From assembly GCA_028282585.1 (NCBI GenBank), contig JANQHR010000127.1, positions 1-64,000 of the forward strand: a stretch of 64,000 bases of DNA, written 5' to 3'. The position numbers were made by a program, and so were the translations under genes. Numbering within the stretch: the first letter of the stretch is position 1; each line of letters opens with the position of its first letter. The notes below the pieces were generated by a model. The model saw nothing but the letters and a program-made list of their open reading frames with translations, was not told the origin of the DNA and ran no database searches. The DNA comes from Bacteroidales bacterium. GTDB taxonomy: Bacteria > Bacteroidota > Bacteroidia > Bacteroidales > UBA12077. Shown here piece after piece: positions 20,893 through 37,768 of this stretch.

Positions 20893-21108
20893 CTAATCCT
20901 CATTCATTTCTCGAAATAACTTTAAAGTTTCTAATGCTTCTTTCTCATTGATTTTTTGCAAAGCAAAACCTGCATGAACTAATACATAATCACCCTCTTT
21001 CACATTATCGACCATTTGCATACCTACTCTTACAATTGTTCCCCCGACCGATACTTCCGCAATATCATCGGTAATTTCAATAACTTTTCCAGGAATACTT
21101 AAACACAT
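20893..21108 (-). CDS. hypC: Hydrogenase chaperone HypC
   Basis: MCLSIPG...LVHAGFA. Confidence 0.96.
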   Translation of the reverse strand: MCLSIPGKVIEITDDIAEVSVGGTIVRVGMQMVDNVKEGDYVLVHAGFALQKINEKEALETLKLFREMNED

Positions 21109-21109
21109 A

Positions 21110-23392: not shown

Positions 23393-24025
23393 TTATATAA
23401 CTTTTTGAGTGTAATAAATTACACTTTCAAGCTCATCGCAGAGGTTTATATTGTTAACAATAACATCTTCCGGTGTTTTTAAAATTACGGGCGCAAAATT
23501 TAATATTCCTTTTATTCCTAACTCAAATAATCTATTTGCTACATCTTGAGCAGAAATTACAGGCACAGCCAAAACAGCTACTTTAACATGAAATTTTTTA
23601 ATTATATCGTTCATCATTTCTAACGGTAATACCGGAACATTCCATCTTTTCGATTGCTTTGCCGGATCAATATCAAAAGAAGCTACAATAATCATTTTTC
23701 TCAATTTAAATGTTTTATATTGTACCAGTGCCCTGCCAATATTTCCCATACCCACTAAAATCATATATTGATCATCCTGATGTTTAATTACATCATCTAT
23801 TGCCCTTAACAATTCGTCAATATTATATCCACCTTTTTTATTACCCGTAATTTTATAATTTGAAAAATCTTTTCTTACTTGTTCAGCACTTACACCCGCC
23901 TCTTCTCCAAGTGTATAGGAAAACAAACGATCAAATCCCTTTCGCTTAAAACCAATTAAACATAAACGATAAGTAAATAATCTTTTTAAATCATTTCGAA
24001 TAACATGTTTTGTGACTTGTTTCAC
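23393..24025 (-). CDS. rex: Redox-sensing transcriptional repressor Rex
   Basis: QVRKDFS winged helix, GMGNIGRAL Rossmann fold, GILNFAP. Confidence 0.93.
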   Translation of the reverse strand: MKQVTKHVIRNDLKRLFTYRLCLIGFKRKGFDRLFSYTLGEEAGVSAEQVRKDFSNYKITGNKKGGYNIDELLRAIDDVIKHQDDQYMILVGMGNIGRALVQYKTFKLRKMIIVASFDIDPAKQSKRWNVPVLPLEMMNDIIKKFHVKVAVLAVPVISAQDVANRLFELGIKGILNFAPVILKTPEDVIVNNINLCDELESVIYYTQKVI

Positions 24026-24027
24026 AT
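24010..24027. promoter_or_regulatory. Rex operator overlapping the rex start codon
   Basis: TTGTGACTTGTTTCACAT versus consensus TTGTGAA-N4-TTCACAA. Confidence 0.72.
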
Positions 24028-24195
24028 TAAAATTATTTTATATAATCTTTTTTGCAAGTTATACAAGTTTTTTGAAAAATAAAATTTTATTTGTTTTATT
24101 TTGATTTACAATTTATTAGCGAAAATGTTGATATGTTTTGTAACATTTTTTTATAAAAACACTTGACAACACAGATTTTGTCCCTATAAATTTAT

Positions 24196-24213
24196 ATGTG
24201 AACGACGTCACAG
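24196..24213. promoter_or_regulatory. Rex operator in front of the [NiFe]-hydrogenase operon
   Basis: ATGTGAACGACGTCACAG (TGTGA-N6-TCACA core), 2 nt before ATG at 24216. Confidence 0.72.
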
Positions 24214-24215: not shown

Positions 24216-25211
24216 ATGAAAAATTATTATTCATTATTAAATTCAGACTGGAATAGCGCATTAGAACAGCTATTTGGAGATTATTTAATTTACGCTCCCA
24301 TAAAAACCGAAGAATCTATCGATTTTGAACTCATTCAAAATGAGGATATTCAGGAAATAATTTATAATGTTCCAAAACCAACTACACCTTTAAAAACATT
24401 CTTTTTACCAATCAAAGAGAATCTAACATCTGAAACGCCAGATAGTAAAAGAATAATTATTGGAACACCTAATTGCGATATTCATGGATTACAAATCCTG
24501 GATGAAATATATTTAGATAAGGACTACGTTGATTATGCATACAAAACTCGTAGGGAAAACACAATCCTAATTTCATCTTCCTGTTTTGAAACTTTAGAAC
24601 ATTGTCATTGTATGACTTATGGAGTAAAGCCATTTTCAACAGAAGTTGCGGATATTTCTTTATCGCATCTTGATAAAAAAATTCATTTAGAGGTACTATC
24701 AGAAAAGGGAGAAAAGTTCATTAATGAATTAAAGAATATTGCAAGTGTTTCAAACTCTGCCGAGTCAGAAATTAAAGATATAGAATTAAAGCACAGTAAA
24801 ATAGAGAATGAAGTAATTGCAAATAATACCGGTTTACCGGATTATAAGAAAACAGGAAAAATAGTTAGTAAAGCCGAAGATAAAACTTGGATAAAGTATT
24901 CTACCAACTGTGTTTCATGCGGTGCATGCGCAACAATCTGCCCTACATGTACTTGTTTTCTATTAATTGACAAACCTAACTTTGAGAAAGTTCGCCAACT
25001 GGATGCGTGTCAATATCCCGGATTTGAAAGAGTAGCAGGCGGAGAAGATGCATTAGGAGAACTTCCAAAAAGGTTTAAAAACAGATACTTCTGCAAGTAT
25101 GTTTGGAAACCACAGAAATTTAAATCTTTGGTTTGTACAGGTTGTGGAAGATGCATAGAAGCATGTATTGGAAAAATAAATAAAAACGAATTATTCAGAG
25201 AATTAGCTTAA
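24216..25211 (+). CDS. AsrA / sulfhydrogenase beta-like 4Fe-4S dicluster protein
   Basis: GTPNCD, CVSCGACATICPTCTCF, CTGCGRCIEAC; ATG at 24216 (the track GTG start lies inside the Rex box). Confidence 0.85.
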   Translation: MKNYYSLLNSDWNSALEQLFGDYLIYAPIKTEESIDFELIQNEDIQEIIYNVPKPTTPLKTFFLPIKENLTSETPDSKRIIIGTPNCDIHGLQILDEIYLDKDYVDYAYKTRRENTILISSSCFETLEHCHCMTYGVKPFSTEVADISLSHLDKKIHLEVLSEKGEKFINELKNIASVSNSAESEIKDIELKHSKIENEVIANNTGLPDYKKTGKIVSKAEDKTWIKYSTNCVSCGACATICPTCTCFLLIDKPNFEKVRQLDACQYPGFERVAGGEDALGELPKRFKNRYFCKYVWKPQKFKSLVCTGCGRCIEACIGKINKNELFRELA

Positions 25212-25212
25212 A

Positions 25213-26037
25213 ATGGCTGAAACAAAAAACATATACAAACCTATAAGAGCCAAATTGTTGGATGTAATTGCCGAATCGCCAACAATTAAGACGTTCATAA
25301 TGGAACCCGAAGAAGATTTTACTTTTAAAACCGGTGAATTTATAGAGCTTACAGTTGATGGTATAGGAGAAGCACCCTTTACACCATCTTCTTCTCCTCT
25401 TGAAACCAAGAAAATTGAAGTAACAGTGATGAAAACCGGTTATGTAACAGAATACTTACACCAAATGAAACCAGGTGAAACTCTTGGAATAAGAGGACCC
25501 TTTGGGCGTGGTTATCCGGTAGAAAGGTTTTACGATAAAGAAGTACTTATTCTTGGTGGAGGTTGTGGCTTTGCCCCTATTAGATCCTTACTATATAATT
25601 TAGCAGCCATATCCGATAAATTAAGGAAAGTTACTTTATGCTATGGTTCAAAAACTCCTGATGAGTGTATTTATAAACCATATGTTGATGAACTAAGAAA
25701 TACACCAAAATTTGAAGTTTTAAGAACGGTTGACGAACCAAATGAATCTTGGTCCGAGTCTGTTGGTGTTGCAACAGTATTACTCGATCAGGTAAAAGTT
25801 GATATTAAAAACTCCGTTGCGGTTTGTTGTGGCCCTCCAATTATGATGAAATTCGGAACAATGAAATTCCTGGAAATGGGTTACCCCGAAAATGATATTT
25901 ACTTGTCAATGGAGAAAAACATGTCATGTGGTCTTGGAAAGTGTGGGCACTGCATGATGGGTAAATATTTTGTTTGTAAGGAAGGTCCTGTGTTTACTTA
26001 TGATGAAATTAAAGATCAACCAGATATCTGGAGTTAA
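25213..26037 (+). CDS. AsrB / sulfhydrogenase gamma-like FAD/NAD(P)-binding 2Fe-2S subunit
   Basis: GEAPF, RGPFGRG, GGGCGFAP, CGPPIMM, MSCGLGKCGHC...CKEGP. Confidence 0.88.
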   Translation: MAETKNIYKPIRAKLLDVIAESPTIKTFIMEPEEDFTFKTGEFIELTVDGIGEAPFTPSSSPLETKKIEVTVMKTGYVTEYLHQMKPGETLGIRGPFGRGYPVERFYDKEVLILGGGCGFAPIRSLLYNLAAISDKLRKVTLCYGSKTPDECIYKPYVDELRNTPKFEVLRTVDEPNESWSESVGVATVLLDQVKVDIKNSVAVCCGPPIMMKFGTMKFLEMGYPENDIYLSMEKNMSCGLGKCGHCMMGKYFVCKEGPVFTYDEIKDQPDIWS

Positions 26038-26040
26038 GGT

Positions 26041-26538
26041 ATGAACAAAAAACTATTAATAGACTTAAGCAAATTCCGTGAATGTGGTAATCAAAGTTGC
26101 GATCAAACACCACCTGAAGGTTTTTTTAGCCATTTAACAAGCACTACCGGCTTAAAATCAATAAGGGAATTAGCTGTATTTCAGTTTACTTGCCGTAAAT
26201 GTGAAGATGCACCTTGTATAACCGTGTGTCCGGCAGAAGCACTTGAAAAAGACGATAATGGTATGATAGAAAGATATACCAATTTATGTATTTCATGTAA
26301 ATCATGTGTAGCCATTTGTCCATTTGGAACTATGATGAGCGATTTCTTTGATCATCATCGAAAAAAAGATCTCTTTTTTGATTTATCTGATGAACATGAA
26401 CTTAGAGAATTTATTAAGGCATGTCCTTTAGGTTCAGTTGAACTGGTTGACATAGATGAAAATCCAGAAGAAAACATTTACAAGTTAAATGATCAAATTT
26501 TAGTTAAAGAAAATATTTGGAATACTGACAAACAGTAA
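26041..26538 (+). CDS. 4Fe-4S ferredoxin-like electron-transfer subunit (HycB/CooF-like)
   Basis: CRKCEDAPCITVCP and CISCKSCVAICP. Confidence 0.82.
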   Translation: MNKKLLIDLSKFRECGNQSCDQTPPEGFFSHLTSTTGLKSIRELAVFQFTCRKCEDAPCITVCPAEALEKDDNGMIERYTNLCISCKSCVAICPFGTMMSDFFDHHRKKDLFFDLSDEHELREFIKACPLGSVELVDIDENPEENIYKLNDQILVKENIWNTDKQ

Positions 26539-26545
26539 CTTTATT

Positions 26546-27478
26546 ATGGCAGAACAATTATTTTATTTTTTAATATATCCGGGACTACTCTTCGCAGCAG
26601 TTATAGGTGCTTTATTATCATGGTATGATAGAAAAGTAACCGCCTGGGTTCAATTTAGAAAAGGACCTCCGTTGCTTCAGCCTTTTTATGATTTCTTTAA
26701 ATTATTATTAGTAAAAGAAACCATATTACCAAAATATGGTTCGAAAGGCGTATTTCTTTCTGCTCCAATATTTGCAGTTTTTGGAGCTACCATTGCTGGA
26801 GTATTTATTTTGCTGCCTTTGCTAGGAGTTGAAACCGGATTTAAAGGTGATATCATTGTCATATTTTACTTATTAACTATTCCATCTTTAACTTATATAA
26901 TTGGAGCGCTTGCTTCAGGAAATCCTTTAGCGGCAATAGGTGGATCAAGAGAAATGAAATTGATTTTAAGTTATGAACTTACATTCCTGTTAGTACTCGC
27001 CGGAATTATTCAAAAAGCCGGAATGACAATCAGCTTTAGTGAAATTATTTCCATTCAAACATTAAATGGAGCATTTGCAGGAAGTATCTCCGGAATAATT
27101 TTATTTATTGTATTTGTTTTTTGTATTCAAGCCAAATTAGCCCTGGTTCCTTTCGATGCTCCGGAAGCCGAGACTGAAATTGCCGATGGAATTATGATTG
27201 AATATTCAGGAACTCCCTATGCCATGATTAAATTGGCTAAATATATCATGTTCTTTATCCTTCCGGCATTTTTAATCGGATTGCTTTGGAAAGGATTAAA
27301 CTTTGAAGGAATCAACATTCTCTGGTCAATATTAAAAATATTATTTGTAGTGCTATTGCTTACTCTGATTAGAAATACTAATCCGAGAGTAAAGATCAAA
27401 CAAGCGATACGGTATTTCGTGGTTTGGATGAACTTGTTAGCTATTATAGCAATTGTTCTATCATATTTTGGATTATAA
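26546..27478 (+). CDS. Group 4 hydrogenase membrane subunit (NuoH/HycD/MbhM-like)
   Basis: RKGPP..QPFYD, PFD.PEAETEI..G...EYSG. Confidence 0.9.
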   Translation: MAEQLFYFLIYPGLLFAAVIGALLSWYDRKVTAWVQFRKGPPLLQPFYDFFKLLLVKETILPKYGSKGVFLSAPIFAVFGATIAGVFILLPLLGVETGFKGDIIVIFYLLTIPSLTYIIGALASGNPLAAIGGSREMKLILSYELTFLLVLAGIIQKAGMTISFSEIISIQTLNGAFAGSISGIILFIVFVFCIQAKLALVPFDAPEAETEIADGIMIEYSGTPYAMIKLAKYIMFFILPAFLIGLLWKGLNFEGINILWSILKILFVVLLLTLIRNTNPRVKIKQAIRYFVVWMNLLAIIAIVLSYFGL

Positions 27479-27490
27479 AAAACTAAAAAC

Positions 27491-27901
27491 GTGGGATTTA
27501 AAGAACTCTGTTTTAAAAAGTCTTTGTGGTTGTTCCATTTCGGAGGAGCATCATGTAATAATTGCGACATTGAAATTCTTGATTGTTTGACGCCACGATT
27601 TGATGTTGAACGATTTGGGATGTTACTCGTTGGCAGTGTTCGCCATGCCGATGTTTTACTTGTTAATGGTTCAATTAATAAAAGAGATAAAAGCAGATTA
27701 TTAGAAATATATGAACAAGCGCCCAAACCAATTTTAGTAGTTGCGATTGGGGCATGTGGTTGTACAGGAGGAATATTTGCAGAAGGAAATACGTTTGCGG
27801 GCCCGGTTGATAAAATAATTCCGGTCGATGCCTATATTCCCGGATGCCCTCCTAAACCCGAAGCTATTTTAGCCGGAGTTGTAAAACTTTTAAATAAGTA
27901 A
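27491..27901 (+). CDS. Group 4 [NiFe]-hydrogenase small subunit (NuoB/MbhJ-like)
   Basis: SCNNCDIE, RHAD, GACGCTGG, IPGCPP. Confidence 0.92.
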   Translation: MGFKELCFKKSLWLFHFGGASCNNCDIEILDCLTPRFDVERFGMLLVGSVRHADVLLVNGSINKRDKSRLLEIYEQAPKPILVVAIGACGCTGGIFAEGNTFAGPVDKIIPVDAYIPGCPPKPEAILAGVVKLLNK

Positions 27902-27913
27902 AGAGATTCTATT

Positions 27914-28351
27914 ATGAATACTGATGAGATCTTAAAAAATATTAAAGATAAGTTTAGTTCTGATGTACTTGAAGTTTTCAAGAAATCGGAAACAAGAGCG
28001 ACCATTACAATAAATCCTGAATCTCTTTTACAGATTGCTGAATATACGTATAAGGATTTAGAGTGCAGATTTATTATTGCCACTGCTGATCATACTAAAA
28101 AAGGATTTGAAATTCTTTATCATTTTAGTAAAGACCAAATCGGGCTGATCGCTAATCTGCATGTTATACTTCCGGTTGACAAACCAGAAATTGAATCTCT
28201 TTCGAATATGTTTTCGGCAACCAACTGGATTGAGCGTGAAATGCATGAATTATATGGCATTGTATTTAAAAATCATCCTGAACCCGAAAAATTAATTTCA
28301 GAAGGAAACTGGGCAGAAGGTGTTTATCCTTATCGAAGAGAATTTAAATAG
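27914..28351 (+). CDS. NuoC/MbhK-like subunit
   Basis: WIEREMHELYGIVFKNHP motif. Confidence 0.88.
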   Translation: MNTDEILKNIKDKFSSDVLEVFKKSETRATITINPESLLQIAEYTYKDLECRFIIATADHTKKGFEILYHFSKDQIGLIANLHVILPVDKPEIESLSNMFSATNWIEREMHELYGIVFKNHPEPEKLISEGNWAEGVYPYRREFK

Positions 28352-28368
28352 AACGGAGAACCAAAACT

Positions 28369-29562
28369 ATGACTAAAAAAACACTCATACCAATTGGTCC
28401 TTATCATCCGCTTCAGGAAGAACCTGAACTGTTTAAACTGTATTGTGAAGGTGAAATTGTAAAGGATATAAAGTGGGAAACTGGTTATAATCACCGCGGT
28501 ATCGAACAATTGAGCGAAAAGAAAACTTTCGATCAGTCTTTCTTTCTTGTAGAAAGAATTTGTGGAATATGCTCAACTTCTCATCCATTAGCTTTTGCAA
28601 ATGCATTAGAGGAAGCTGGTAATATTGAGATCACAAATCGTGCTAAATATATTCGTTCCATTATTGCCGAATTAGAACGAGTACATAGTCATCTCCTTTG
28701 GGTTGGACTGGCTGGACACTTTCTAGGTTATAATACAGTTTTTATGTGGGCCTGGAAATACCGTGAACCAATTCTTGACTTATTCGAGATGATAACTGGA
28801 AACAGAAATAGTTATGCCATGTTTAAGGTCGGTGGTGTTCGAAGAGATATCGAAAACAGCATGATACCTAAAATAACCAAGATCTTAGATATGGTTAAGA
28901 AGAAAACAGATATGTTAGTTGGGGCTGTTATGGACGATCCGGTAATACATGCACGCACGAAAGGAGTTGGAACGCTAACTAAACAAGATATTATTGATTA
29001 TGCCGCAGTTGGACCAACAGCTAGAGCATCAGGAGTTGATGTTGATGTTCGAAGAGATGATCCCTACGCAGCGTATCCATTAGTAAACTGGAAAGTAATT
29101 ACGGCCGAAAAAGGTGATGTATTTGCTAAAGCAGAAGTACGTTTGTTAGAAATGTACGAATCAATCTCAATTATAGAACAATGTCTTGAAGGATTAAAAA
29201 AAGAAAAAGAAGGTGATACAGAAGTAAAAGTGAAACATGTTGCTGCAGGTTGGGGAACGGGGCATGCAGAAGCACCTAGAGGAGAAGTGTTCCATTATGT
29301 TTTGACAGATGGTTCCAACTCACCTGCAAGACATAAAATTCGTGCTCCTAGTTATACCAACATTGCAACATTTAAGAAATCATGCGTGGGCCAAACCATT
29401 TCAGACGCAACGATTTCTTTAGCTGCCGTTGATCCATGCTATTGTTGTACAGAAAGAATGGCTGTAGCTTATAACTGGAAAACAGGCGAAAGAATTCTAA
29501 ATGGAAATGAACTCATAGCTTTATCAGCTAAAAAAACTCAGAAAATTAGGAATCAAATATAA
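28369..29562 (+). CDS. Group 4 [NiFe]-hydrogenase large subunit
   Basis: GPYHP, HRGIE, L1 ERICGICS, EAPRGE, L2 DPCYCCTER plus C-terminal extension. Confidence 0.93.
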   Translation: MTKKTLIPIGPYHPLQEEPELFKLYCEGEIVKDIKWETGYNHRGIEQLSEKKTFDQSFFLVERICGICSTSHPLAFANALEEAGNIEITNRAKYIRSIIAELERVHSHLLWVGLAGHFLGYNTVFMWAWKYREPILDLFEMITGNRNSYAMFKVGGVRRDIENSMIPKITKILDMVKKKTDMLVGAVMDDPVIHARTKGVGTLTKQDIIDYAAVGPTARASGVDVDVRRDDPYAAYPLVNWKVITAEKGDVFAKAEVRLLEMYESISIIEQCLEGLKKEKEGDTEVKVKHVAAGWGTGHAEAPRGEVFHYVLTDGSNSPARHKIRAPSYTNIATFKKSCVGQTISDATISLAAVDPCYCCTERMAVAYNWKTGERILNGNELIALSAKKTQKIRNQI

Positions 29563-29570
29563 GGTTCGAC

Positions 29571-31424
29571 ATGAATGAAATAACTTACATCATATTTTTA
29601 CCAATATTCGCGGGTATCTTGCTTTTTATTATACCTGAAAAGCTAAAAACTTTAAAAGGGATAACTGCGAGTATTATATCGTTATTTGCTCTGTATCAAT
29701 CAATATTGATATTTAACGCTCAGGCAGGAATATATAATCTTACTGAAATAGCAAGTTGCCAGCTCTTTTCGGAAACTTTTAAAGATGCTGGGCGATATGT
29801 AAGTTTTAATATGGATCAGCTAAGTCAATTAATCATCTTAATTGTAAATATTTTTGCATTCTTAATTGTCATATATTCGCTGTTTTATATTGATAAGAAT
29901 AAGAAGATCAACAACTACTTTGCTTTCTTCTTAATTACCCTTGGCACATCTAATGGTGCTGTCTTATCAAATAATTTATTATTGTTCTTAACCTTTTGGG
30001 GAATTTTAGGGTTCACTTTATATAAACTTATAAAAGGAGCAGACGAAGAAAGTTCTTCAACCGCAAAGAAAACACTGGCTATTGTTGGAGCTTCAGATGG
30101 TATTATGATTCTGGGTATTGCAATTATCTGGAAAATCACTGACACCCTTAGCATTAATGAGTTAAATCTGGCAACCAATAATGCGCTTACGGTTATTGCC
30201 TTTATTACTTTACTTATTGGAAGTTTTACAAAAGCCGGTGCTTTCCCTTTTCACACATGGGTACCTGATTATGCTAAAGATGCACCAGCATCTTCATCAG
30301 CATATATGCCAGCTTCGTTGGATAAACTGCTTGGAATTTACTTCCTGGCAAGAATTTGCAATTATATGTTTGTTCTGAACGACTGGTTAACATTTACCTT
30401 ATTGGCAATTGGGGTAATTACTATTATTACTGCCGTAATGATGGCCCTAGTTCAACATAATTATAAAAGATTACTTGGATTCCATGCCGTTTCTCAGGTT
30501 GGATATATGATTGTTGGCTTTGGTCTTGGAACCGTAATTGGTGTTGTTGCCGGACTGTTCCATATGTTAAATAATGTATTGTATAAAACCGGTCTATTCC
30601 TTGTATCCGGAAACGTTGAAAAACAAACAGGCAAAAATGATATTGACGATTTAAGCGGATTATCCAGGGCTATGCCGCTAACATTTATTTGCGCTTTGAT
30701 CTTTGCACTTTCCATTTCCGGAATTCCTCCTTTTAATGGATTTGCATCGAAATGGATGATTTATCAGGGAATTATAGAATTCGGTCAAGGTTCAGGAATT
30801 GCAAATCAATGGTGGATTGTTTGGTTAGGCTTAGCTGTGCTTGGATCGGCATTAACATTGGCAAGTTTTGTGAAATTTACTTCAGGATTATTCCTGGGTA
30901 AAAAACGAAAGGAATTCGAAAATGTTAAAGAAGTCAATATACTGGGTTGGTTACCAATCTGTTTAATGGCTTTAGGTTGTATTGTATTCGGTGTATTTTC
31001 AACAAGTTACGTTGTACCAAAACTATTTAGTCCGATTGTTGGCCAAATAGAATTAATTGGTATATGGAACTCTACAACTGTTTCAATCCTGGTTCTTGTA
31101 TCCATTGCTCTTGGATTATTGGTTTACATGATTGGTAATGTTAAAAACTATCGTTCAGAAGACAGTTTTGTTGGAGGTGGTGAAAATATGAGAGAACAAT
31201 CGCATGTTGCAACAACAGGGTTTTATGATACTATTAAGAACTTTGGATTCTTATCAACTCTTTACGAAAAAGCAGAAAAACGTTGGTTCGATATTTATGA
31301 TTTATCAAAGAATTTCATACACTGGTGCGGTAAAAGATTCCAGGGTGCACATACAGGATTATTGCCTGATTACGCCATTTGGGTTTTTGCCGGACTCATT
31401 ATAATGTTACTTATTTTAATATAA
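29571..31424 (+). CDS. Antiporter-like ion-translocating subunit (MrpA/NuoL/HyfB-like)
   Basis: TKAGAFPFHTWVP, GIPPFNGFASK, many TM helices. Confidence 0.9.
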   Translation: MNEITYIIFLPIFAGILLFIIPEKLKTLKGITASIISLFALYQSILIFNAQAGIYNLTEIASCQLFSETFKDAGRYVSFNMDQLSQLIILIVNIFAFLIVIYSLFYIDKNKKINNYFAFFLITLGTSNGAVLSNNLLLFLTFWGILGFTLYKLIKGADEESSSTAKKTLAIVGASDGIMILGIAIIWKITDTLSINELNLATNNALTVIAFITLLIGSFTKAGAFPFHTWVPDYAKDAPASSSAYMPASLDKLLGIYFLARICNYMFVLNDWLTFTLLAIGVITIITAVMMALVQHNYKRLLGFHAVSQVGYMIVGFGLGTVIGVVAGLFHMLNNVLYKTGLFLVSGNVEKQTGKNDIDDLSGLSRAMPLTFICALIFALSISGIPPFNGFASKWMIYQGIIEFGQGSGIANQWWIVWLGLAVLGSALTLASFVKFTSGLFLGKKRKEFENVKEVNILGWLPICLMALGCIVFGVFSTSYVVPKLFSPIVGQIELIGIWNSTTVSILVLVSIALGLLVYMIGNVKNYRSEDSFVGGGENMREQSHVATTGFYDTIKNFGFLSTLYEKAEKRWFDIYDLSKNFIHWCGKRFQGAHTGLLPDYAIWVFAGLIIMLLILI

Positions 31425-31430
31425 AATAGC

Positions 31431-31958
31431 ATGGAATTAACACTATCTATATTATTAGGTTTTATGATCATTGGAGCTCTGTTCGCAATACATGCTAAAG
31501 ATCTTCTTTCAGCCGTAATTGCAGCAGGTATTGTAGGATACAGTCTTGTGATTTGTTTCTTATTGCTAAAAGCTCCGGATCTGGCTATTGTACAAATCGT
31601 TGTTGAAACCATAACCCTAATAATAATGGTTGCTGTTGTCCTTGACAGTACCAGAGAAGAGCTTAAAGTTAAAGTCGACAGGCAACAGATTATCAATATA
31701 TCACTTGCCCTCATTTTTATAGTTCTGCTGGCGTTTTTCTTTGTACAAGCAACTGGAAAGTTAAATCCATTTGGCGAACATACATTACGAATGGCAAATG
31801 CCTACGTTGGTGAAACTGCTTCTAAAACCGGCAGCACCAATTTGGTGACGGGTGTGCTATTCGATTTTCGTGGTTATGATACCTTAGGAGAAGCTACTAT
31901 ACTTTTCACAGCAGCAATTGGTGTTTTATCTATTTTAAGAATTAAAGGAAGAAAATAA
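31431..31958 (+). CDS. MrpA C-terminal-like subunit (DUF4040 + MbhE-type)
   Basis: APDLAI and DFRGYDTLGE motifs. Confidence 0.85.
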   Translation: MELTLSILLGFMIIGALFAIHAKDLLSAVIAAGIVGYSLVICFLLLKAPDLAIVQIVVETITLIIMVAVVLDSTREELKVKVDRQQIINISLALIFIVLLAFFFVQATGKLNPFGEHTLRMANAYVGETASKTGSTNLVTGVLFDFRGYDTLGEATILFTAAIGVLSILRIKGRK

Positions 31959-32395
31959 TGAAAGGAATGTCACTCATAGTCAAAAAGGTTGCTCAACTGA
32001 TCGCAGGTCTGATTTTCTTATATGGAATATATATTATGGTACATGGTCATTTAACACCCGGAGGCGGATTTGCCGGCGGTGCTCTAATAGCTGGATCTTA
32101 TATATTGGCAATCCTTGCTTATGGTTCCGATACAATTAAACTTAAAAAAGAAGAAACAGGTACCTCCTTAACCGAAAGTATTTCGATTTTTATTGCTTTA
32201 ATGTTAGCTGTTGCAGGATTCTTTATTGGAACCAAAGTATTTTTTAACAATTATCTACCGTCAGGTAAAATTGGAGAGTTAATTAGCGCGGGAGTTATAC
32301 CTCTATATAATATTTTTATTGGGATCGAGGTAGCTGCAGCGCTTATAACAATATTCTTAGCATTAATAATTTATAAAGAGGAAATAGAAGAATGA
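31958..32395 (+). CDS. mnhB: Mrp/Mnh antiporter subunit B
   Basis: GHLTPGGGFAGG. Confidence 0.9.
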   Translation: MKGMSLIVKKVAQLIAGLIFLYGIYIMVHGHLTPGGGFAGGALIAGSYILAILAYGSDTIKLKKEETGTSLTESISIFIALMLAVAGFFIGTKVFFNNYLPSGKIGELISAGVIPLYNIFIGIEVAAALITIFLALIIYKEEIEE

Positions 32396-32730
32396 TTGTT
32401 TACATTTTATGTTTCATATTATTCCTTGTAGGTTTATATGGATTAATAACCAGAAGAAACCTGATTAAAATAGTAATTTCATTGTCCATTATGGAATTCA
32501 GCATCTTCATTTTATTGGTTTTAATAGGTTATATCGACGGTGGAATTGCTCCAATTATTCCTGAAAATGTTACAAATCCAACTTACGTTGACCCACTGCC
32601 ACAGGCAATGGTTTTAACAGCAATTGTTATTGGTTTGGCAACAACTGCTATGCTTATGGCTATTGCAATTAGATTGTATCGAAAATACAGAACATTTGAT
32701 ATAAGAGATATTAAAAATTTAAAAGGATAA
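32392..32730 (+). CDS. mnhC: Mrp/Mnh antiporter subunit C
   Basis: DPLPQAMVLTAIVIG. Confidence 0.92.
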   Translation: MIVYILCFILFLVGLYGLITRRNLIKIVISLSIMEFSIFILLVLIGYIDGGIAPIIPENVTNPTYVDPLPQAMVLTAIVIGLATTAMLMAIAIRLYRKYRTFDIRDIKNLKG

Positions 32731-32733
32731 GAA

Positions 32734-34260
32734 ATGAATTCATTGATTCCTTTATTTGTTATAATTCCATTAGCAACAGCCTTTCTAATTCCAATAATTG
32801 GAAAGATTACAAACTATTTTGCCAAAACCATTACTCCAATTATTTTACTTGCATTAAGTATTTTGAGTATTTCTTTTTTGTTTTATGGTAAACATGAAAG
32901 TTATATTATTGGAGGGTGGCAGCCGGTTGAAAACATTCCTATTGCAATTTATCTGGTTTTAGATGGATTTAGCTGTCTTGTGCTTTGCATAACCAGTCTT
33001 ATCGGATTCCTGGTGTCTTTCTATTCGATTTCTTATATCAAAAAATATACTTCGGAAAACAATTTTTACGCACTATTTTGTTTAATGATTGCAGGGATGA
33101 ATGGAGTTGTTTTAAGTGGCGACATTTTTAATCTATTTGTATTCCTTGAAATTTCAGTAATTGCTTCGTATGCTTTAGTTGCTTTTGGTGTAGGTAAAAA
33201 TGAGCTGGAAGCTTCTTTTAAATATCAGGTTTTAGGAAACATTGCATCATTTTTAATTCTGTTTAGCATTGCTCTTTTATACTGGCAAACAAAAACATTG
33301 AATATAGCTGATATTTCAAAGGTTTTACAAAACTATGACAACAGCATATTTTTAACATTTACACAAATCATTTTAATAACTGGTTTTGGACTAAAAGCAG
33401 CAATTATTCCTTTCCATGCATGGTTGCCTGATGCACACTCATCGGCACCATCTCCTATTTCTGCCATGCTTTCCGGTGTATTAATAAAAGCTGTTGGAGT
33501 TTATGTTTTAGTAAGATTGTTCTTTAATATGTTTGTATTTACTTACGAGATCGGAGTATTAGTTGCTGTATTAGGCACATTATCAATGATAGTTGGCTCA
33601 TTACTGGCTATTAACCAATGGGATATAAAACGACTTCTTGCATATTCCAGTATTAGTCAAATAGGCTATATTATGATTGGATTTGGAATTGGAATGATGA
33701 TTCTCACAAAAGGTGGAGAAGCTAGTATAGCTGTTTTAGCGATAGCAGGTAGTTTGTTTCATATGGTAAATCACTCTGTATTTAAGGGATTACTTTTCCT
33801 TGGTGCGGGAGCCATAGAATTCAGAACTAACACGCGAGATATGAGTCAGTTGGGTGGGTTGTCCGAAAACATGCCAATTACATCGACAACATCTTTGGGG
33901 GCATCAATGTCGATTTCCGGTATCCCTCCATTTAATGGATTCTTCAGTAAATTAATTATCATAATTGCCGCAATTCAGGGTAAATTTTACTTACTAGCCT
34001 TACTCGCCGTTATTGTAAGCATAATAACACTAGCATATTTCTTAAAGTTTCAGAAATCCGTTTTCTACGGAAAAAATAAAAATTATAAAAATATTAAGGA
34101 AGTGCCATTTGCTATGAGTTTTTCAATGATCATTTTAGTAATCCTTTGTATTGGTTTAAGTGTACTGGCAATACCGAGTATACGGGAAGTTATATTAGAT
34201 CAGGCGGTTAGTTCCTTAATAAATATGGACCATTACATTAACCTAGTAATACAGTATTGA
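32734..34260 (+). CDS. mnhD: Mrp/Mnh antiporter subunit D (MbhH-like)
   Basis: DIFNLFVFLEI, LKAAIIPFHAWLPDAH, GIPPFNGFFSK. Confidence 0.9.
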   Translation: MNSLIPLFVIIPLATAFLIPIIGKITNYFAKTITPIILLALSILSISFLFYGKHESYIIGGWQPVENIPIAIYLVLDGFSCLVLCITSLIGFLVSFYSISYIKKYTSENNFYALFCLMIAGMNGVVLSGDIFNLFVFLEISVIASYALVAFGVGKNELEASFKYQVLGNIASFLILFSIALLYWQTKTLNIADISKVLQNYDNSIFLTFTQIILITGFGLKAAIIPFHAWLPDAHSSAPSPISAMLSGVLIKAVGVYVLVRLFFNMFVFTYEIGVLVAVLGTLSMIVGSLLAINQWDIKRLLAYSSISQIGYIMIGFGIGMMILTKGGEASIAVLAIAGSLFHMVNHSVFKGLLFLGAGAIEFRTNTRDMSQLGGLSENMPITSTTSLGASMSISGIPPFNGFFSKLIIIIAAIQGKFYLLALLAVIVSIITLAYFLKFQKSVFYGKNKNYKNIKEVPFAMSFSMIILVILCIGLSVLAIPSIREVILDQAVSSLINMDHYINLVIQY

Positions 34261-34261
34261 T

Positions 34262-34747
34262 ATGAAATACGTTGCATTGTTTATATTATCACTCATATTC
34301 TGGTTATTATTAACTTATAATCTAACCATACCTAACATTATTGTTGGATCAATAGCATCATTAATAACCTCGTTGATCTTTGGAAAATATTTTCTAAAAG
34401 ATGTGGTTCCGTTTTTACAACCTCAGCGTTATTTCTGGTTAATGGTATACTTGTTTATTTTTACCTGGGAATGTATCAAAGCAAACTTTGATGTTGCGTA
34501 TAGAGTATTGCATCCGGCAATGCCAATAAAACCGGGAATAGTAAGGGTAAAACTTGGATTAAAAACAAATATTGCAAAAACTATTTTAGCGAACTCAATT
34601 ACCATGACTCCCGGAACTATTTCTGTGGATATTATTGGTGATGAAATTTATGTACACTGGATATATGTATATTCAGAAAATCCAGAAGAATATAGTCACA
34701 AGATCTCAGGAAGATTTGAAAAATACATTAAAAAAATATTCGAATGA
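34262..34747 (+). CDS. mnhE: Mrp/Mnh antiporter subunit E
   Basis: LANSITMTPGT, YVHW. Confidence 0.92.
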   Translation: MKYVALFILSLIFWLLLTYNLTIPNIIVGSIASLITSLIFGKYFLKDVVPFLQPQRYFWLMVYLFIFTWECIKANFDVAYRVLHPAMPIKPGIVRVKLGLKTNIAKTILANSITMTPGTISVDIIGDEIYVHWIYVYSENPEEYSHKISGRFEKYIKKIFE

Positions 34748-35010
34748 TTGATTATCTGAACATATTACTTTATGCGCAAATTGCATTATGCATATTCTGT
34801 TTATACAGGATAATTCGAGGGCCATCTATTGCCGACAGAATGGTTGGCATCGATATTTTCGGAATCCTTGTAGTAGGAATATGTGCTATATTATCCATTA
34901 CTACGCAGCGAAAGTTTATTCTTGACATTGGTATAGCATGGATTATTTTAAGCTTTATTGGAACCTTAACCCTGGCTAAATATTTAAGTGGTAAAAAACT
35001 AAACGAATAA
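34744..35010 (+). CDS. mnhF: Mrp/Mnh antiporter subunit F
   Basis: GPS..DR...D, three TM helices. Confidence 0.9.
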   Translation: MIDYLNILLYAQIALCIFCLYRIIRGPSIADRMVGIDIFGILVVGICAILSITTQRKFILDIGIAWIILSFIGTLTLAKYLSGKKLNE

Positions 35011-35336
35011 TGGAAACAATCGGCTTTATATTCATATGTATCGGAATTCTTTTTAATCTTTTTGGCTGTATCGGTTTGATAAGGCTACCAGATGTTTATA
35101 ACAGGTTACAGTCAGCCACAAAATGTGTTACCTTAGGTACATGCAGCATTTTGGTAGGCGTAATTTTTTATTATGGTTTTAATGGAGCAGGATTTAAAGC
35201 AATTATTGCTATTCCATTATTATTCTTTGCAGCTACCGTTGCCGCGCATGCTTTAGTAAAAGGAGCCTATATATTCGGTGTTAAATTAGGCAATAAAAGC
35301 GTTAAGGATGATTATGAAGATGTTCCAAAGAGTTAA
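35010..35336 (+). CDS. mnhG: Mrp/Mnh antiporter subunit G
   Basis: GLIRLPDVYNRL..ATK..TLG. Confidence 0.92.
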   Translation: METIGFIFICIGILFNLFGCIGLIRLPDVYNRLQSATKCVTLGTCSILVGVIFYYGFNGAGFKAIIAIPLLFFAATVAAHALVKGAYIFGVKLGNKSVKDDYEDVPKS

Positions 35337-35340
35337 TTAG

Positions 35341-35420
35341 TTCAGAGTTTAGAGTTGAAAAACTCAAAACTCAAAACTCAAAACTTGTCTGCCGATAGGC
35401 AGGCTCAAAACTTTTAAACT
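35341..35420. repeat. AACTCAA heptamer repeat interrupted by a small palindrome
   Basis: aactcaa x3, then tgtctgccgataggcagg, then ctcaaaact; preceded by inverted agagttt units. Confidence 0.7.
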
Positions 35421-35423
35421 AAA

Positions 35424-36038
35424 ATGAAGTATCCAAAAATAAGAGAAGTAAAAGAAGCATTGGTATCGTTATTTACGCCGGCATATACAACTAAGTTTCC
35501 TAAAGAACCTCATGTTCCATTCGAAAACTACAGAGGTAAACCTGAGGTTGATGAAAGAAATTGTGTTGGATGCGAAACCTGTGCAAATGTTTGTCCCCCG
35601 CATGCTATTACTTTTGAAGATGATAAAGTAAAAGAAATTCGAACAATCAAAAGAGATTACGGAAAATGTATTTTTTGTGCTGAATGTCAGATACATTGCA
35701 TAACTCAAAAAGGAGTTAAACTATCAGATAAGATTTTTGATATTGCCAACTTTGACAGAACTCAGGTCGTTGAGTACCAAGAACGTGAATTAATCGTGTG
35801 TAAAAATTGCAGTGCTGTAATAACAACTAAAGATCATTTACAGTATATGCATAAAAAGTTAGGACCAAAATCATACGCATCTATTCAAAATTTGAATGTA
35901 CTTAACGAAAAACTTCGATTATCATCAAAAGAAAATGCAGAATCAGATATCAAAGATGGTTTAAAAAGAAAAGATATGTTCAATATCTTATGTCCTAACT
36001 GTTTAAGAGAAGTTTTAACAACATATACCTTTGAGTGA
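35424..36038 (+). CDS. NuoI/HycF/MbhN-like 2x[4Fe-4S] subunit with extra CxxC pairs
   Basis: YRGKP, CVGCETCANVCP, CIFCAECQIHC, CKNC, CPNC. Confidence 0.9.
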   Translation: MKYPKIREVKEALVSLFTPAYTTKFPKEPHVPFENYRGKPEVDERNCVGCETCANVCPPHAITFEDDKVKEIRTIKRDYGKCIFCAECQIHCITQKGVKLSDKIFDIANFDRTQVVEYQERELIVCKNCSAVITTKDHLQYMHKKLGPKSYASIQNLNVLNEKLRLSSKENAESDIKDGLKRKDMFNILCPNCLREVLTTYTFE

Positions 36039-36481
36039 TCGAAAACTTAGATAGTATAATAAAAGAAAACAATAAGAAAAAACTCTTTGTAGGGATCGGG
36101 AATGTTTTAAAAAGTGATGATGGTGTTGGAGTTTACATAAGTAATAAAATTAAAGAATCTTTCGATATACAAAAACTAACAGTTGAAGTTAGCATCGAAA
36201 ATTATATAGGCAAAATAAACTCTTTAAATCCTGATGTTCTTATACTTCTTGATTGTGTAGATTATGGAAAATCAGCAGGATATGTTGAACTTCTTCCTGC
36301 AGAAAAAGTCAAAGACTTTACGTTGAATACGCACAACATCTCGCTAAAAAGGATCTCAGAGTTATTTAAGATGCCTGTTTATATATTAGGAATTCAACCT
36401 GAAAATGTTCAGTTTGGAGAAAATATCTCTAAAACAGTACTAGAATCAGCGAATAAATTAATAAATAAAATCAACCAATAA
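36035..36481 (+). CDS. Hydrogenase maturation endopeptidase (HycI-like)
   Basis: GIGNVLKSDDGVG, THNISL, GIQP. Confidence 0.9.
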   Translation: MIENLDSIIKENNKKKLFVGIGNVLKSDDGVGVYISNKIKESFDIQKLTVEVSIENYIGKINSLNPDVLILLDCVDYGKSAGYVELLPAEKVKDFTLNTHNISLKRISELFKMPVYILGIQPENVQFGENISKTVLESANKLINKINQ

Positions 36482-36493: not shown

Positions 36494-36901
36494 ATGGCGA
36501 AAGATTATTACTGTCCGATTTGCAAAGGTCAATTAAGGGTTAAAAACTCCATTTTGCTATCGGCAAAGTCAAAACAGAACGAAAAGGGTTTAATATTTTT
36601 AAACTCTGAGATCGGAGATTACTCAATTACTACACATTCTACCTTCCAGGTTCGCGAAGGACAGGAATATACATTCTTCTGCCCTATTTGTCATGCTACA
36701 CTTAACAGAGAAGAGAATCCACAACTTGTAAAGATCTTTCTTAAAGATGGTGATGAAGTGTTCGAAGTCTATTTCTCAAGTTTAGCAGGAGAAAAATGTA
36801 CATATAAAATCAGTGACAAAAGTATTGAGCAAATAGGTCCTGATGCAAATCATTACAAACAATATTTTGATGTCCCGGAAGAAGATAAAAAGTATCTTTA
36901 A
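36494..36901 (+). CDS. Hypothetical soluble protein with two CxxC motifs
   Basis: YYCPIC and FFCPICH; no signal peptide. Confidence 0.7.
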   Translation: MAKDYYCPICKGQLRVKNSILLSAKSKQNEKGLIFLNSEIGDYSITTHSTFQVREGQEYTFFCPICHATLNREENPQLVKIFLKDGDEVFEVYFSSLAGEKCTYKISDKSIEQIGPDANHYKQYFDVPEEDKKYL

Positions 36902-37054: not shown

Positions 37055-37768
37055 ATGACAATAGATTCAAATGCCTTATACTTGACAGCTGCCTCAATTG
37101 GGTTCTTTCACACTCTTTTGGGGCCTGATCATTATCTACCATTTATTGTAATGTCCAGAGCAAGAAAATGGCCATTATGGAAAACAAATCTTATTACTTT
37201 TATTTGTGGAATTGGCCATGTAGCAAGTTCAATCATTATTGGTTTTATTGGTATTTTATTAGGAATAGCTGTTAATAAACTTACACCTATTGAAGCTACC
37301 AGGGGTTCTGTTGCTGCCTGGTTAATGATAGCCTTTGGATTGGTATATTTTATTTGGGGATTGAGAAGAGCATACAAGCAAAAGGAACATTCACATGAGC
37401 ATGTACATGAGGACGGCACTGTACACGTTCATAAACACTCACACTTCAAAGAACACTCGCATATACATGAAAAGAAAAATATTAAGGAGATTACACCTTG
37501 GATACTTTTTACAATATTTATTTTTGGTCCATGTGAGCCATTTATTCCTGTTTTACTATATCCTGCTGCACAAAATAATGTTATGGCAATGGTAATGGTT
37601 ACTTTAATTTTCAGCATAGTTACTGTTGGAACCATGATGTTGGTGGTTACAAGTACATATTTTGGATTTAAACTTCTGCCAAAATTGAATATTGAAAGGT
37701 TTATGCATGCAATTGCAGGATTTACAATCTTTTTATGTGGGGCAAGTATTCAGTTCTTAGGATTATAG
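37055..37768 (+). CDS. His-rich nickel/cobalt transporter (NiCoT/UreH/RcnA-like)
   Basis: HTLLGPDH, GIGH, His-rich loop, GPCE; sits at the end of the NiFe operon. Confidence 0.85.
   Translation: MTIDSNALYLTAASIGFFHTLLGPDHYLPFIVMSRARKWPLWKTNLITFICGIGHVASSIIIGFIGILLGIAVNKLTPIEATRGSVAAWLMIAFGLVYFIWGLRRAYKQKEHSHEHVHEDGTVHVHKHSHFKEHSHIHEKKNIKEITPWILFTIFIFGPCEPFIPVLLYPAAQNNVMAMVMVTLIFSIVTVGTMMLVVTSTYFGFKLLPKLNIERFMHAIAGFTIFLCGASIQFLGL

Follow-up and report, generated by a model that had tools for sequence, protein, structure and literature searches.

We analyzed a stretch of 64,000 nucleotides from a Bacteroidales bacterium (assembly GCA_028282585.1, contig JANQHR010000127.1, positions 1 to 64,000; hereafter called the window), in which 17 genes of the + strand, at 24216-36481, encode what is, by its sequence, a group 4, Mrp-linked [NiFe]-hydrogenase. 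The run is headed by three genes coding for an AsrA-like, an AsrB-like and a HycB-like protein. We consider it probable that this operon, repressed by Rex, specifies a modular "NAD(P)H hydrogenlyase", that is, one membrane complex in which the oxidation of NAD(P)H would be coupled to the formation of H2 and to ion translocation. Its electron route, coupling, direction, nucleotide and ion are what we infer from the sequences. That the three-gene head belongs to the enzyme, and is no passenger, is concluded from the linkage of the genes across related loci, from the absence of other partners from the genome, from a docking model and from the Rex boxes.

The 17 open reading frames (ORFs) are tightly packed, with intergenic gaps of -4 to +17 nt and a sole larger gap of 87 nt in front of the sixteenth gene. 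Their identities were established from Pfam and NCBIfam profile matches to the ORFs of the window. The original prediction, made by a reader who had seen the DNA letters and the ORFs, had announced AsrA-, AsrB- and ferredoxin-like genes, NuoH/B/C/D-like genes, a Mrp set, a NuoI-like gene and a protease, and every item of this content was found to be right. Between 23300 and 38000, two terminator-like sites were observed, both within genes, where 7.8 were expected.

The first two genes encode the putative NAD(P)H input module. The AsrA/sulfhydrogenase-beta-like Fe-S subunit (24216-25211, 331 aa) is matched by Pfam Fer4_22 (6e-22) and by the NCBIfam models ShyB (1.5e-43) and AsrA (4e-38). The AsrB/sulfhydrogenase-gamma-like subunit (25213-26037, 274 aa), predicted to carry FAD, NAD(P)H and a [2Fe-2S] cluster, contains the FAD_binding_6, NAD_binding_1 and DHODB_Fe-S_bind domains and is AsrB-HydG-like by NCBIfam. 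When compared with the beta and gamma chains of sulfhydrogenase I (SHI), the two proteins matched over nearly their full length (9nez_B, 1.1e-29, and 9nez_C, 4.3e-48, respectively). Their scores stay below the NCBIfam equivalog cut-offs for sulfhydrogenase (149 vs 690 bits and 168 vs 600 bits) as well as below those of the AsrA and AsrB models (131 vs 323 and 199 vs 289). A protein atlas search with the AsrA-like protein returned generic Fer4_22/AsrA clusters only, and its homologues bear public names such as "sulfhydrogenase subunit beta (sulfur reductase)", "ferredoxin" and "Anaerobic sulfite reductase subunit A".

The cofactor motifs of this module are strongly conserved. Sixteen cysteines are invariant in 30 sequences of the AsrA-like subunit. 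In the AsrB-like subunit, the motifs APFTPSSSP (flavin binding of the ferredoxin-NADP+ reductase (FNR) family), GGGxGxAPxRS (NAD(P)), CGPPxMM and CGxGxCGHC...C ([2Fe-2S]) are at least 98% conserved, as counted over 112 unique sequences from both clades described below. The loop that follows the second strand of the NAD domain was also compared with the SHI gamma, NfnA-like and NqrF chains and across the same 112 sequences. It reads G-(S/A)-(K/R)-T-P, with a basic residue in 112/112 cases, and a similar motif occurs in the NADH-specific NqrF of the alignment.

The third gene encodes a HycB/HydN/CooF-like connector with two [4Fe-4S] clusters (26041-26538, 165 aa; Pfam Fer4_11; NCBIfam HydN, DmsB and ArrB), in which eight cysteines are invariant. 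Its best matches in the Protein Data Bank (PDB) were ArrB (3e-14), HycB3 of the hydrogen-dependent CO2 reductase (2e-12) and HycB of formate hydrogenlyase (FHL; 7e-11). The sixteenth gene, HycF/NuoI-like (35424-36038, 204 aa), encodes another subunit with two [4Fe-4S] clusters (Pfam Fer4_7; NCBIfam FHL iron-sulfur subunit, 2e-26), which resembles HycF of FHL (7z0s_F, 1.3e-17, residues 18-142) more than MbhN (4.7e-11). Its residues 143-202 form a C-terminal extension without counterpart in the aligned part of HycF. With 7z0s_F as the top structural hit of the HycF-like subunit, and HycB, HycB3 and ArrB as hits of the HycB-like one, the hydrophilic arm is, as far as these alignments tell, built like that of FHL, and it is joined to a membrane arm with a complete Mrp set. 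The HycF-like protein also contains a CxxC...CxxC pair (C126, C129, C190 and C193), invariant in 26 sequences and lying outside its two ferredoxin motifs; these residues might make up a zinc ribbon or ligate an additional cluster, and the segment that they flank is modelled against the AsrA-like subunit.

The hydrogenase core is encoded by the fourth to seventh genes, which specify a NuoH/MbhM/HycD-like membrane anchor (26546-27478; NADHdh, 7e-61), a NuoB-like small subunit (27491-27901; Oxidored_q6, 3e-32), a NuoC-like subunit (27914-28351; Complex1_30kDa, 5e-21) and a NuoD-like [NiFe] large subunit of 397 aa (28369-29562; NuoD match with a NiFeSe_Hases N-terminus). The motifs ERICGICSTSH and DPCYCCTER of the large subunit, with their RICGIC and DPCYCC cores, retain all four Ni-Fe cysteines, and C65, C68, C357 and C360 are invariant in eight orthologues. 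DPCYCCTER is followed by 34 residues, a tail of the kind that HycI cleaves. Among solved structures, the large subunit is closest to MbhL (6cfw_L, 5.3e-80, 272 bits), followed by HycE (7z0s_E, 4.4e-75, 256 bits) and, at a distance, by MbsL (6u8y_L, 2.2e-46). The Mbs/Mbx enzymes are recognized by the loss of Ni-Fe cysteines in the NuoD-like subunit; because these cysteines are intact here, the enzyme is not of that type, as had been predicted.

Eight Mrp-like genes follow. They encode the N-terminal part of MrpA, a NuoL-like antiporter subunit of 617 aa (29571-31424; Proton_antipo_M, 3e-56), an MbhD+MbhE protein equivalent to the C-terminal part of MrpA (31431-31958; MbhD, MbhE), a MrpB/MnhB-like protein (31958-32395; MnhB), a MrpC/MnhC/NuoK-like protein (32392-32730; Oxidored_q2), a second antiporter subunit of 508 aa that is MrpD-like (32734-34260; Proton_antipo_M, 1e-69), MrpE (34262-34747; MNHE, 3e-43), MrpF (34744-35010; MrpF_PhaF) and MrpG (35010-35336; PhaG_MnhG_YufB). 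The last gene of the run encodes a maturation endopeptidase of the HycI type (36035-36481; NCBIfam hycI, 5e-25), which also passes the cut-off of the superfamily model for hydrogenase maturation proteases. The operon brings together a NuoD-like subunit with two CxxC motifs, NuoB-, NuoC-, NuoI- and NuoH-like subunits and antiporter-like subunits, which is the sequence signature of group 4 [NiFe]-hydrogenases. It also holds homologues of MrpA to MrpG in one operon, as expected for the Mrp-linked subgroups (4b/4d style). For maturation, the C-terminal tail and HycI are complemented by the adjoining hypFCDEAB genes.

In order to follow the three-gene head through related genomes, species-representative genomes were scanned with an alignment of the large subunit. 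At least 599 stretches matched, at least 588 of which encode a relative, and the best 80 of these relatives (79-96% identity) were retained as the locus set. All 80 are Bacteroidota/Bacteroidales by title, 79 being metagenome-assembled or single-amplified genomes and one an isolate, Labilibacter sediminis CG51 (L054). The AsrA-, AsrB- and HycB-like genes were found upstream, on the same strand, in 62/62 Bacteroidales loci offering at least 4700 nt of upstream sequence. A draw across the order supplied eleven more divergent orthologues (71-77% large-subunit identity). The three-gene head is present in each of the nine that could be judged; the remaining two are a contig that breaks off in nuoH and a stretch that, owing to an insertion, ends in asrB.

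Outside this clade, the nearest 50% cluster representatives share 58-60% identity with the window large subunit, and the next ones at most 47%. A sister clade was assembled from the 80 loci returned by a metagenome scan with one of these representatives (P0247); the loci show 54-64% identity to the window large subunit and a GC content of 0.35-0.66. When the 36 loci with enough upstream sequence were considered, all three head genes were present in 30 and the HycB-like gene in 35. In one of the six exceptions (L110) the contig starts within an insertion; the other five (L102, L132, L139, L141 and L156) are devoid of AsrAB. The conserved AsrAB adjacency on which the original prediction had staked its case was in this way borne out in 62/62, 9/9 and 30/36 loci. 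Downstream, all nine Mrp/NuoI-like genes were found in 56/56 Bacteroidales and 36/36 sister-clade loci with room for them.

The upstream content of the AsrAB-less loci was established by Pfam in L139 and L102 and from the ORF layout in L132. Here a second NuoL/H/B/C/D-like unit comes first, followed by a 619 aa protein combining Fer4, Fer4_20 and Pyr_redox_2 domains and then by a CBS protein. The NuoD-like protein of this second unit is without Ni-Fe cysteines, as in an Ehr/Mbx-like unit (L139, 208-7476). The 619 aa protein is GltD/SudA-like, i.e. a NAD(P)H-type flavoprotein of a different kind, in a NuoI-type fusion. A FastTree phylogeny was then computed for 119 large subunits, for which 61 of 121 full-length representatives were dropped and every tenth of loci L001-L080 was kept. 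The 59 locus sequences and only 5/60 unlabelled representatives formed one clade (Shimodaira-Hasegawa-like support 97), in which the sequences from AsrAB-less loci appear as tips adjoining nearly identical sequences from loci with AsrAB. For this reason the three-gene head looks ancestral to the lineage, with a recent loss or replacement in a few members. We had also considered that the C-terminal extension of the HycF-like subunit might co-vary with AsrAB; this idea was rejected, as the extension also occurs in AsrAB-less loci.

Next, the rest of the genome (4.89 Mb, 98% complete) was searched for other partners of the beta/gamma-like pair. The best hit of the AsrC model TIGR02912 in the genome reached 38.9 bits for a cut-off of 324.1 and covered an Fe-S stretch only. 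The PF00374 (NiFeSe_Hases) search revealed neither another [NiFe] hydrogenase nor group 3 alpha/delta subunits in the genome, the large subunit described here being its sole PF00374 and PF00346 (Complex1_49kDa) gene. With no AsrC and no group 3 hydrogenase, the pair is left without a sulfite reductase or a group 3 enzyme to serve. In addition, the AsrA-like gene is the only Fer4_22 gene of the genome. No formate or CO dehydrogenase gene was detected in the operon or elsewhere in the window, FdhF and CooS not having been searched in the rest of the genome, and Pfam revealed no ferredoxin gene among the ORFs of the operon. The genome is probably devoid of complex I; no NuoD homologue besides the hydrogenase large subunit was found in it. 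It does contain two RnfD/NqrB-family genes (contigs C137 and C2) and a stand-alone Mrp-like cluster (C130).

The window also carries two HydABC-type [FeFe] hydrogenase clusters on the - strand (8791-12900 and 55694-59191), each encoding a thioredoxin-like [2Fe-2S] protein, a Complex1_51K flavoprotein and a Fe_hyd_lg_C catalytic subunit. Clusters of this kind are usually read as confurcating NADH and ferredoxin. At 15046-16398 lies a homologue of the HydS-like sensory [FeFe] hydrogenases (Fe_hyd_lg_C, 95 bits, followed by a C-terminal FeS domain). It is flanked by small HATPase_c, PHP, DRTGG and Hpr_kinase_N-like genes, and the whole of 13412-17165 (- strand) looks, from these domains, like a hydrogen-sensing regulatory cluster.

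To examine the contact between the input module and the arm, a three-chain model of the HycF-like, HycB-like and AsrA-like proteins was computed with alignments of 26-30 natural sequences each, the AsrA-like chain being the scored partner. The AsrA-like subunit was placed on the HycB-like/HycF-like pair in three runs with an ipSAE of 0.92, and none of the three controls scored above 0.00. As a rough calibration, with custom alignments, this mark is attained by 58/80 solved complexes and by 2/110 mismatched pairs. The runs agreed in at least 94% of the contacts, and the confidence (pLDDT) of the AsrA-like chain was at least 90. In the model, the cluster loops 230-241 and 312-320 of the AsrA-like Fer4_22 domain face the HycB-like protein at its first cluster loop (52-58 and 94-95). 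Most of the contact between the HycF-like and AsrA-like subunits is made by residues 143-202 of the former, and when the HycF-like chain was swapped out the score dropped to 0.00. The model supports a binding of the AsrA-like subunit to the HycB-like/HycF-like arm, which agrees with the docking on the hydrophilic arm that the original prediction had put forward for structure prediction.

Furthermore, the operon appears to be under the control of Rex. A divergent rex gene (23393-24025, - strand; Pfam Put_DNA-bind_N and CoA_binding) precedes it, whose product scores 205 bits with the NCBIfam Rex model NF003996 for a cut-off of 138. The 190 nt spacer between rex and the asrA-like gene contains two predicted operators: box 1, TGTGACTTGTTTCACA (24011-24026), overlaps the rex start, and box 2, TGTGAACGACGTCACA (24197-24212), lies 3 nt upstream of the asrA-like ATG. 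The Rex consensus is TTGTGAAnnnnTTCACAA. The palindrome TGTGA-N6-TCACA occurs twice in the window, for 0.04 expected, and just these two copies, both in the spacer, exist in the whole 4.89 Mb genome. A Rex protein and a palindromic predicted operator upstream, the two sequence features of a Rex regulon, are both present. The promoter scan gave matches at chance level (72 vs 65.9 expected); TTGACA-18-TAAATT at 24163-24192, directly before box 2, is for that reason a mere lead.

The same arrangement was found in the 62 Bacteroidales loci. At least one exact box was present within -260 to +5 of the asrA-like start in 44/62 loci, and two boxes in 35/62, at conserved positions of about -200 and about -17. 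In total, 79 boxes were counted upstream and one in the remaining ~1.18 Mb of these loci, and a divergent rex was observed in 53/59 Bacteroidales loci with room for it. As a second rex paralogue (31% identity) is located on contig C120, the local Rex looks dedicated to the operon. The Rex box announced at the start of the operon was real and accompanied by a second one, and the link to pyridine nucleotides drawn from it turned out to be stronger than claimed, given the rex paralogue and the genome-unique predicted boxes.

Taken together, these data suggest the following mechanism. The single Rex-repressed operon would give rise to a single membrane complex with a Mrp-linked group 4 [NiFe] core, in which a NAD(P)H dehydrogenase of the sulfhydrogenase beta/gamma type would stand where a formate or CO dehydrogenase would otherwise be. 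NAD(P)H would donate its electrons to the FAD and the [2Fe-2S] cluster of the AsrB-like subunit, and from there to the Fe-S clusters of the AsrA-like subunit. The HycB-like, HycF-like and NuoB-like subunits would relay them, in this order, to the [NiFe] site, where protons would be reduced to H2. Coupled to this redox step, Na+ or H+ would move through the NuoH-like and both antiporter-like subunits.

Rex is released from its operator by a rising NADH/NAD+ ratio, so the operon would be induced when NADH needs an outlet, and the enzyme would be made in order to discharge NADH. In view of this induction, the physiological direction is most likely from NAD(P)H to H2. Enzymes of group 4b couple a near-equilibrium reaction to a full Mrp set; the reaction considered here being near equilibrium, the complex is probably reversible. 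At the very low H2 of syntrophic habitats, a little energy would be conserved, and at higher H2 the ion gradient would be drawn on. More broadly, and tentatively, since we place it slightly below an even chance, the complex may correspond to complex I with H2 as its product. Anaerobic Bacteroidales, and a wider range of uncultured bacteria, would possess in it a reversible, ion-motive NAD(P)H:proton oxidoreductase that vents NADH electrons directly as H2, with no involvement of ferredoxin. A fraction of an ATP would be gained as long as syntrophic partners hold H2 very low, the gradient would be spent at higher H2, a dedicated Rex would act as the switch, and add-ons of the CBS or cyclic-nucleotide type may tune it in some lineages.

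Several observations weigh against the NAD(P)H hydrogenlyase. The five AsrAB-less loci of the sister clade keep the HycB-like gene, the hydrogenase and the HycF-like extension, so the core can use another donor, and ferredoxin is a possible donor or co-donor here as well. The G-(S/A)-(K/R)-T-P loop does not settle the choice between NADH and NADPH at the sequence level, and the Rex logic would apply less directly to an enzyme specific for NADPH. In other bacteria, ferredoxin-dependent hydrogenases are under Rex control as well. The window already carries two HydABC clusters, of a type that usually deals with NADH together with ferredoxin, and it is not evident why another NADH outlet would be needed. 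Under standard conditions the reaction from NAD(P)H to H2 is uphill (about -320 mV vs -414 mV), and it becomes downhill only at very low H2 or at a high NAD(P)H/NAD(P)+ ratio. Finally, the ipSAE value expresses the confidence of a model and is not a measurement. For the ion-translocating H2:NAD(P) oxidoreductase of the original prediction, the balance is as follows: the AsrAB pair conserved and co-regulated with the hydrogenase, the docking model and the conserved AsrB-like motifs speak for it, and the five sister-clade loci lacking AsrAB speak against it.

The same evidence bears on four other explanations. The complex might be a ferredoxin-oxidizing Mbh in which the AsrAB-like module is the exit, i.e. 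an ion-pumping ferredoxin:NAD(P)+ oxidoreductase, a role once proposed for Mbx, with a hydrogen valve. This is consistent with the ferredoxin dependence of the characterized Mbh enzymes and with MbhL as best solved match of the large subunit, with the reversibility of FNR-type modules, and with the ferredoxin-type HycB-like subunit, which persists in 35/36 sister-clade loci even where AsrAB is missing. Nevertheless, an operon induced at high NADH by a dedicated Rex would be an odd place for a producer of NADH; the operon has no ferredoxin gene, and the genome is already provided with two RnfD/NqrB-family genes. We regard this explanation as unlikely. The Rex logic, which predicts expression when NADH is already high, is equally at odds with a mainly uptake enzyme, the other alternative of the original prediction, in which H2 would reduce NAD(P)+ and ions would be pumped out. 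Such a direction would be downhill at high H2 and would suit both the beta/gamma homologues, which belong to a bidirectional group 3b enzyme, and the two antiporter-like subunits. The free energy would, however, be near zero at environmental H2, no NuoD was found in the genome and hence there is probably no complex I that could use extra NADH, and the neighbourhood, with its two HydABC clusters and its sensory [FeFe] hydrogenase, is fermentative; a mainly uptake function therefore seems quite unlikely to us.

The AsrA-, AsrB- and HycB-like proteins could also constitute a separate soluble NAD(P)H:acceptor oxidoreductase, merely co-transcribed with a ferredoxin-dependent Mbh, as might be suspected from the position of the three genes as a block at the 5' end of the operon and from the existence of AsrAB-less hydrogenase variants. 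The linkage in 62/62, 9/9 and 30/36 loci over GC contents of 0.35-0.66, the absence from the genome of AsrC, of a group 3 hydrogenase and of a second Fer4_22 gene, and the placement of the AsrA-like subunit on the HycF-like extension, lost (0.00) when the HycF-like chain was replaced, make this very unlikely. It is highly improbable that the enzyme reduces sulfur or polysulfide in the manner of Mbs or of sulfhydrogenase. Sulfhydrogenase beta and gamma subunits do reduce sulfur in vitro, and a homologue is publicly named "sulfhydrogenase subunit beta (sulfur reductase)", but the four Ni-Fe cysteines, the cleavable tail, HycI and the full hyp set point to a hydrogenase, and the match to MbsL is far weaker than those to MbhL and HycE. 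An electron confurcation of NAD(P)H and ferredoxin towards H2 was dismissed, as Pfam revealed no subunit like the known bifurcating flavoproteins.

The proposed NAD(P)H hydrogenlyase can be compared with several known systems. Ferredoxin-type Mbh enzymes have no substrate module of their own; ferredoxin docks on an MbhN-type subunit and one antiporter-like subunit is present. As its subunits are generally listed, the Pyrococcus furiosus membrane-bound hydrogenase (MBH; PDB 6CFW) has a NuoD-like [NiFe] large subunit, NuoB/C/H-like subunits, MbhD/E and homologues of MrpB, C, D, E, F and G in common with the enzyme described here, and it is placed in group 4d in the part of the HydDB paper available to us (PMC5037454). 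The present operon adds the 617 aa MrpA/NuoL-like antiporter subunit, the HycB-like subunit, the AsrAB-like module and HycI, and its ferredoxin-type subunit is HycF-like, not MbhN-like. Through its three additional input genes and its second subunit of the antiporter type, it departs from the ferredoxin-coupled P. furiosus type of Mbh. FHL-1 of Escherichia coli (7Z0S) and the formate dehydrogenase- and carbon monoxide dehydrogenase (CODH)-linked Mrp-Mbh enzymes of Thermococcus onnurineus (group 4b in the consulted part of PMC5037454) share its logic, in which electrons run from a dehydrogenase over a HycB/CooF-type, a HycF-type and the small subunit to the NiFe site. The likeness to FHL is seen in HycE as second-best solved match, in the HycF and HycB matches and in the HycI-cleaved tail; the difference is that a flavin/Fe-S NAD(P)H module is found here and no formate or CO dehydrogenase in operon or window.

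Sulfhydrogenase I of P. furiosus (group 3b, 9NEZ) has homologous beta and gamma subunits with the same cofactor motifs, whereas the partner here is a membrane-bound group 4 enzyme without group 3 alpha/delta subunits, and the scores are far below the equivalog cut-offs. The AsrABC sulfite reductase is distinguished by AsrC, which is missing here, and by AsrA and AsrB scores above the cut-offs, which the present proteins do not attain. Respiratory complex I also places a NADH flavin/Fe-S module on a NuoB/C/D/H/I core with antiporter-like pumps; in contrast, the NuoD homologue here keeps its NiFe site and is predicted to reduce protons and not quinone, and the NADH module is unrelated to NuoEFG. 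Another relative in concept is the SudA-linked "dehydrogenase-linked MBX" of Thermosphaera aggregans and Staphylothermus marinus, in which, according to the portion of PMC3035292 consulted, a NAD(P)H dehydrogenase feeds a Mbh/Mbx-type complex; Spring et al. proposed there a link between the Mbx-type complex of T. aggregans and a SudA-type NADPH dehydrogenase. That system resembles the NuoI-GltD/SudA-like fusion adjoining the AsrAB-less variants. It differs from the present one in its archaeal hosts and in its GltD/SudA family, as opposed to the AsrAB/FNR type, and the same portion leaves protons or sulfur open as acceptor.

The closest precedents are the clusters of Saganbacteria RX5A and of groundwater Elusimicrobia ("Mbh-Mrp-oxidoreductase type"), in which a group 4 hydrogenase, Mrp-like genes, cooF, asrA and asrB likewise occur (PMC6349859; 10.1101/765248, both as far as consulted). 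In the text consulted, Matheus Carnevali et al. called the RX5A cluster "an oxidoreductase module" and presumed a Mbh-like function (PMC6349859), and Meheust et al. stated the oxidoreductase function of their "Mbh-Mrp-oxidoreductase type" to be unknown (10.1101/765248). The Saganbacteria cluster adds an unclassified molybdopterin oxidoreductase (PMC6349859), which the operon studied here does not contain. The consulted parts of both papers neither propose NAD(P)H coupling nor mention Rex control. HydDB, in its accessible text, distinguishes the Mrp-linked groups 4b (formate/CO), 4d (ferredoxin) and the uncharacterized 4g (PMC5037454), and Loh et al. likewise state, in the excerpt consulted, that no 4g enzyme has been characterized (PMC7886697). 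Williams et al., in the sections available, treat the Mrp-linked 4g enzymes as ferredoxin-driven, apply the name 4g to those of Cloacimonadota, Omnitrophota and Auribacterota, and count sulfhydrogenases by their gamma subunit (PMC8542988, PMC9324843).

Full-text searches of the literature, run without subscription journals and supplements, found neither NAD(P)H coupling nor Rex control proposed for an AsrAB-linked Mrp-Mbh, nor its occurrence in Bacteroidota. The gene arrangement is already known; the specific reading, the breadth and the regulation are new. The combination of AsrAB with a Mrp-linked group 4 hydrogenase, to which the original prediction drew attention, has to be credited to the Saganbacteria report, which left the function of its oxidoreductase module unassigned, to judge by the part consulted (PMC6349859). 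The further statement that the system is unusual for Bacteroidota was correct for the phylum as a whole, where a draw of 401 genomes contained two with an orthologue, and not within the order Bacteroidales, where 22/401 genomes and 13/236 genera possess it. In the genus itself, an orthologue was present in 5/13 genomes. The hydrogenase is a recurrent accessory trait within anaerobic Bacteroidales.

How fermenters dispose of NADH electrons as H2 is one of the central questions in the energetics of anaerobes. In the known cases, it is solved by electron-confurcating [FeFe] hydrogenases or by Rnf together with a ferredoxin-dependent hydrogenase. If the proposal of a NAD(P)H hydrogenlyase is true, a membrane enzyme connecting NAD(P)H directly with H2 by way of an ion gradient would provide a third solution, and NAD(P)H would be a fourth type of input for Mrp-type hydrogenases, beyond ferredoxin, formate and CO. 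It would not be a curiosity, given its presence in 22 of the 401 sampled Bacteroidales genomes and in sister-clade contigs of 35-66% GC. Marker surveys based on the gamma subunit, as described in the consulted part of PMC9324843, may count the AsrAB-linked Mrp-Mbh as a sulfhydrogenase. Similarly, metabolic models in which every Mrp-linked Mbh is ferredoxin-driven (PMC8542988, PMC9324843, within the same limits) may err for the AsrAB-linked enzyme. A cultured carrier exists in Labilibacter sediminis CG51 (L054), which makes the question accessible to bench testing.

The surroundings of the operon were also inspected. The maturation genes hypB, hypA, hypE, hypD, hypC and hypF (17371-23338, - strand) adjoin rex and were identified by the HypF domains, cobW/HypB, AIRS (HypE), HypD, HypC and HypA of Pfam. 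On the other side, a 135 aa ORF with two CPxC motifs (36494-36901, + strand) starts 12 nt after the HycI gene and could be an 18th gene of the operon; no Pfam family matched it above the cut-off. It is kept downstream in 49/55 Bacteroidales loci and in 0/36 sister-clade loci. Further downstream, a ferrochelatase gene occupies 37750-38775, and a respiratory-looking region (45585-55313) encodes a ResB-CcsA fusion for cytochrome c assembly, a Crp-family regulator, a DUF5777 protein, a 4Fe-4S protein, a NrfD-like membrane protein and a c-type cytochrome.

Finally, several variants of the operon were noticed in the related loci. An insert of ~0.5 kb separates the asrB-like and hycB-like genes in 25/62 Bacteroidales loci and is missing from the window; in L017, the locus in which its ORF was read, it encodes a 151 aa protein with a cyclic-nucleotide-binding domain (7058-7513; PF00027, 7.7e-10). 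In two sister-clade loci (L145, 13048-14127, and L159), the HycF/NuoI-like subunit (359 aa) ends in a fused pair of CBS domains, and in L139 a separate CBS protein is encoded in front of the hycB-like gene, so that nucleotide-sensing domains recur on this enzyme. The operon is interrupted by insertions in L110, L111 and L122. The insert of L111 (5281-9552, 4.3 kb) lies between the nuoB-like and nuoC-like genes and contains an ORF of 433 aa; it also encodes a beta-helix protein (986 aa) bearing a sorting tail of the type IX secretion system. In L083, ~5 kb (about 10500-15400) are inserted between the nuoH-like and nuoB-like genes.

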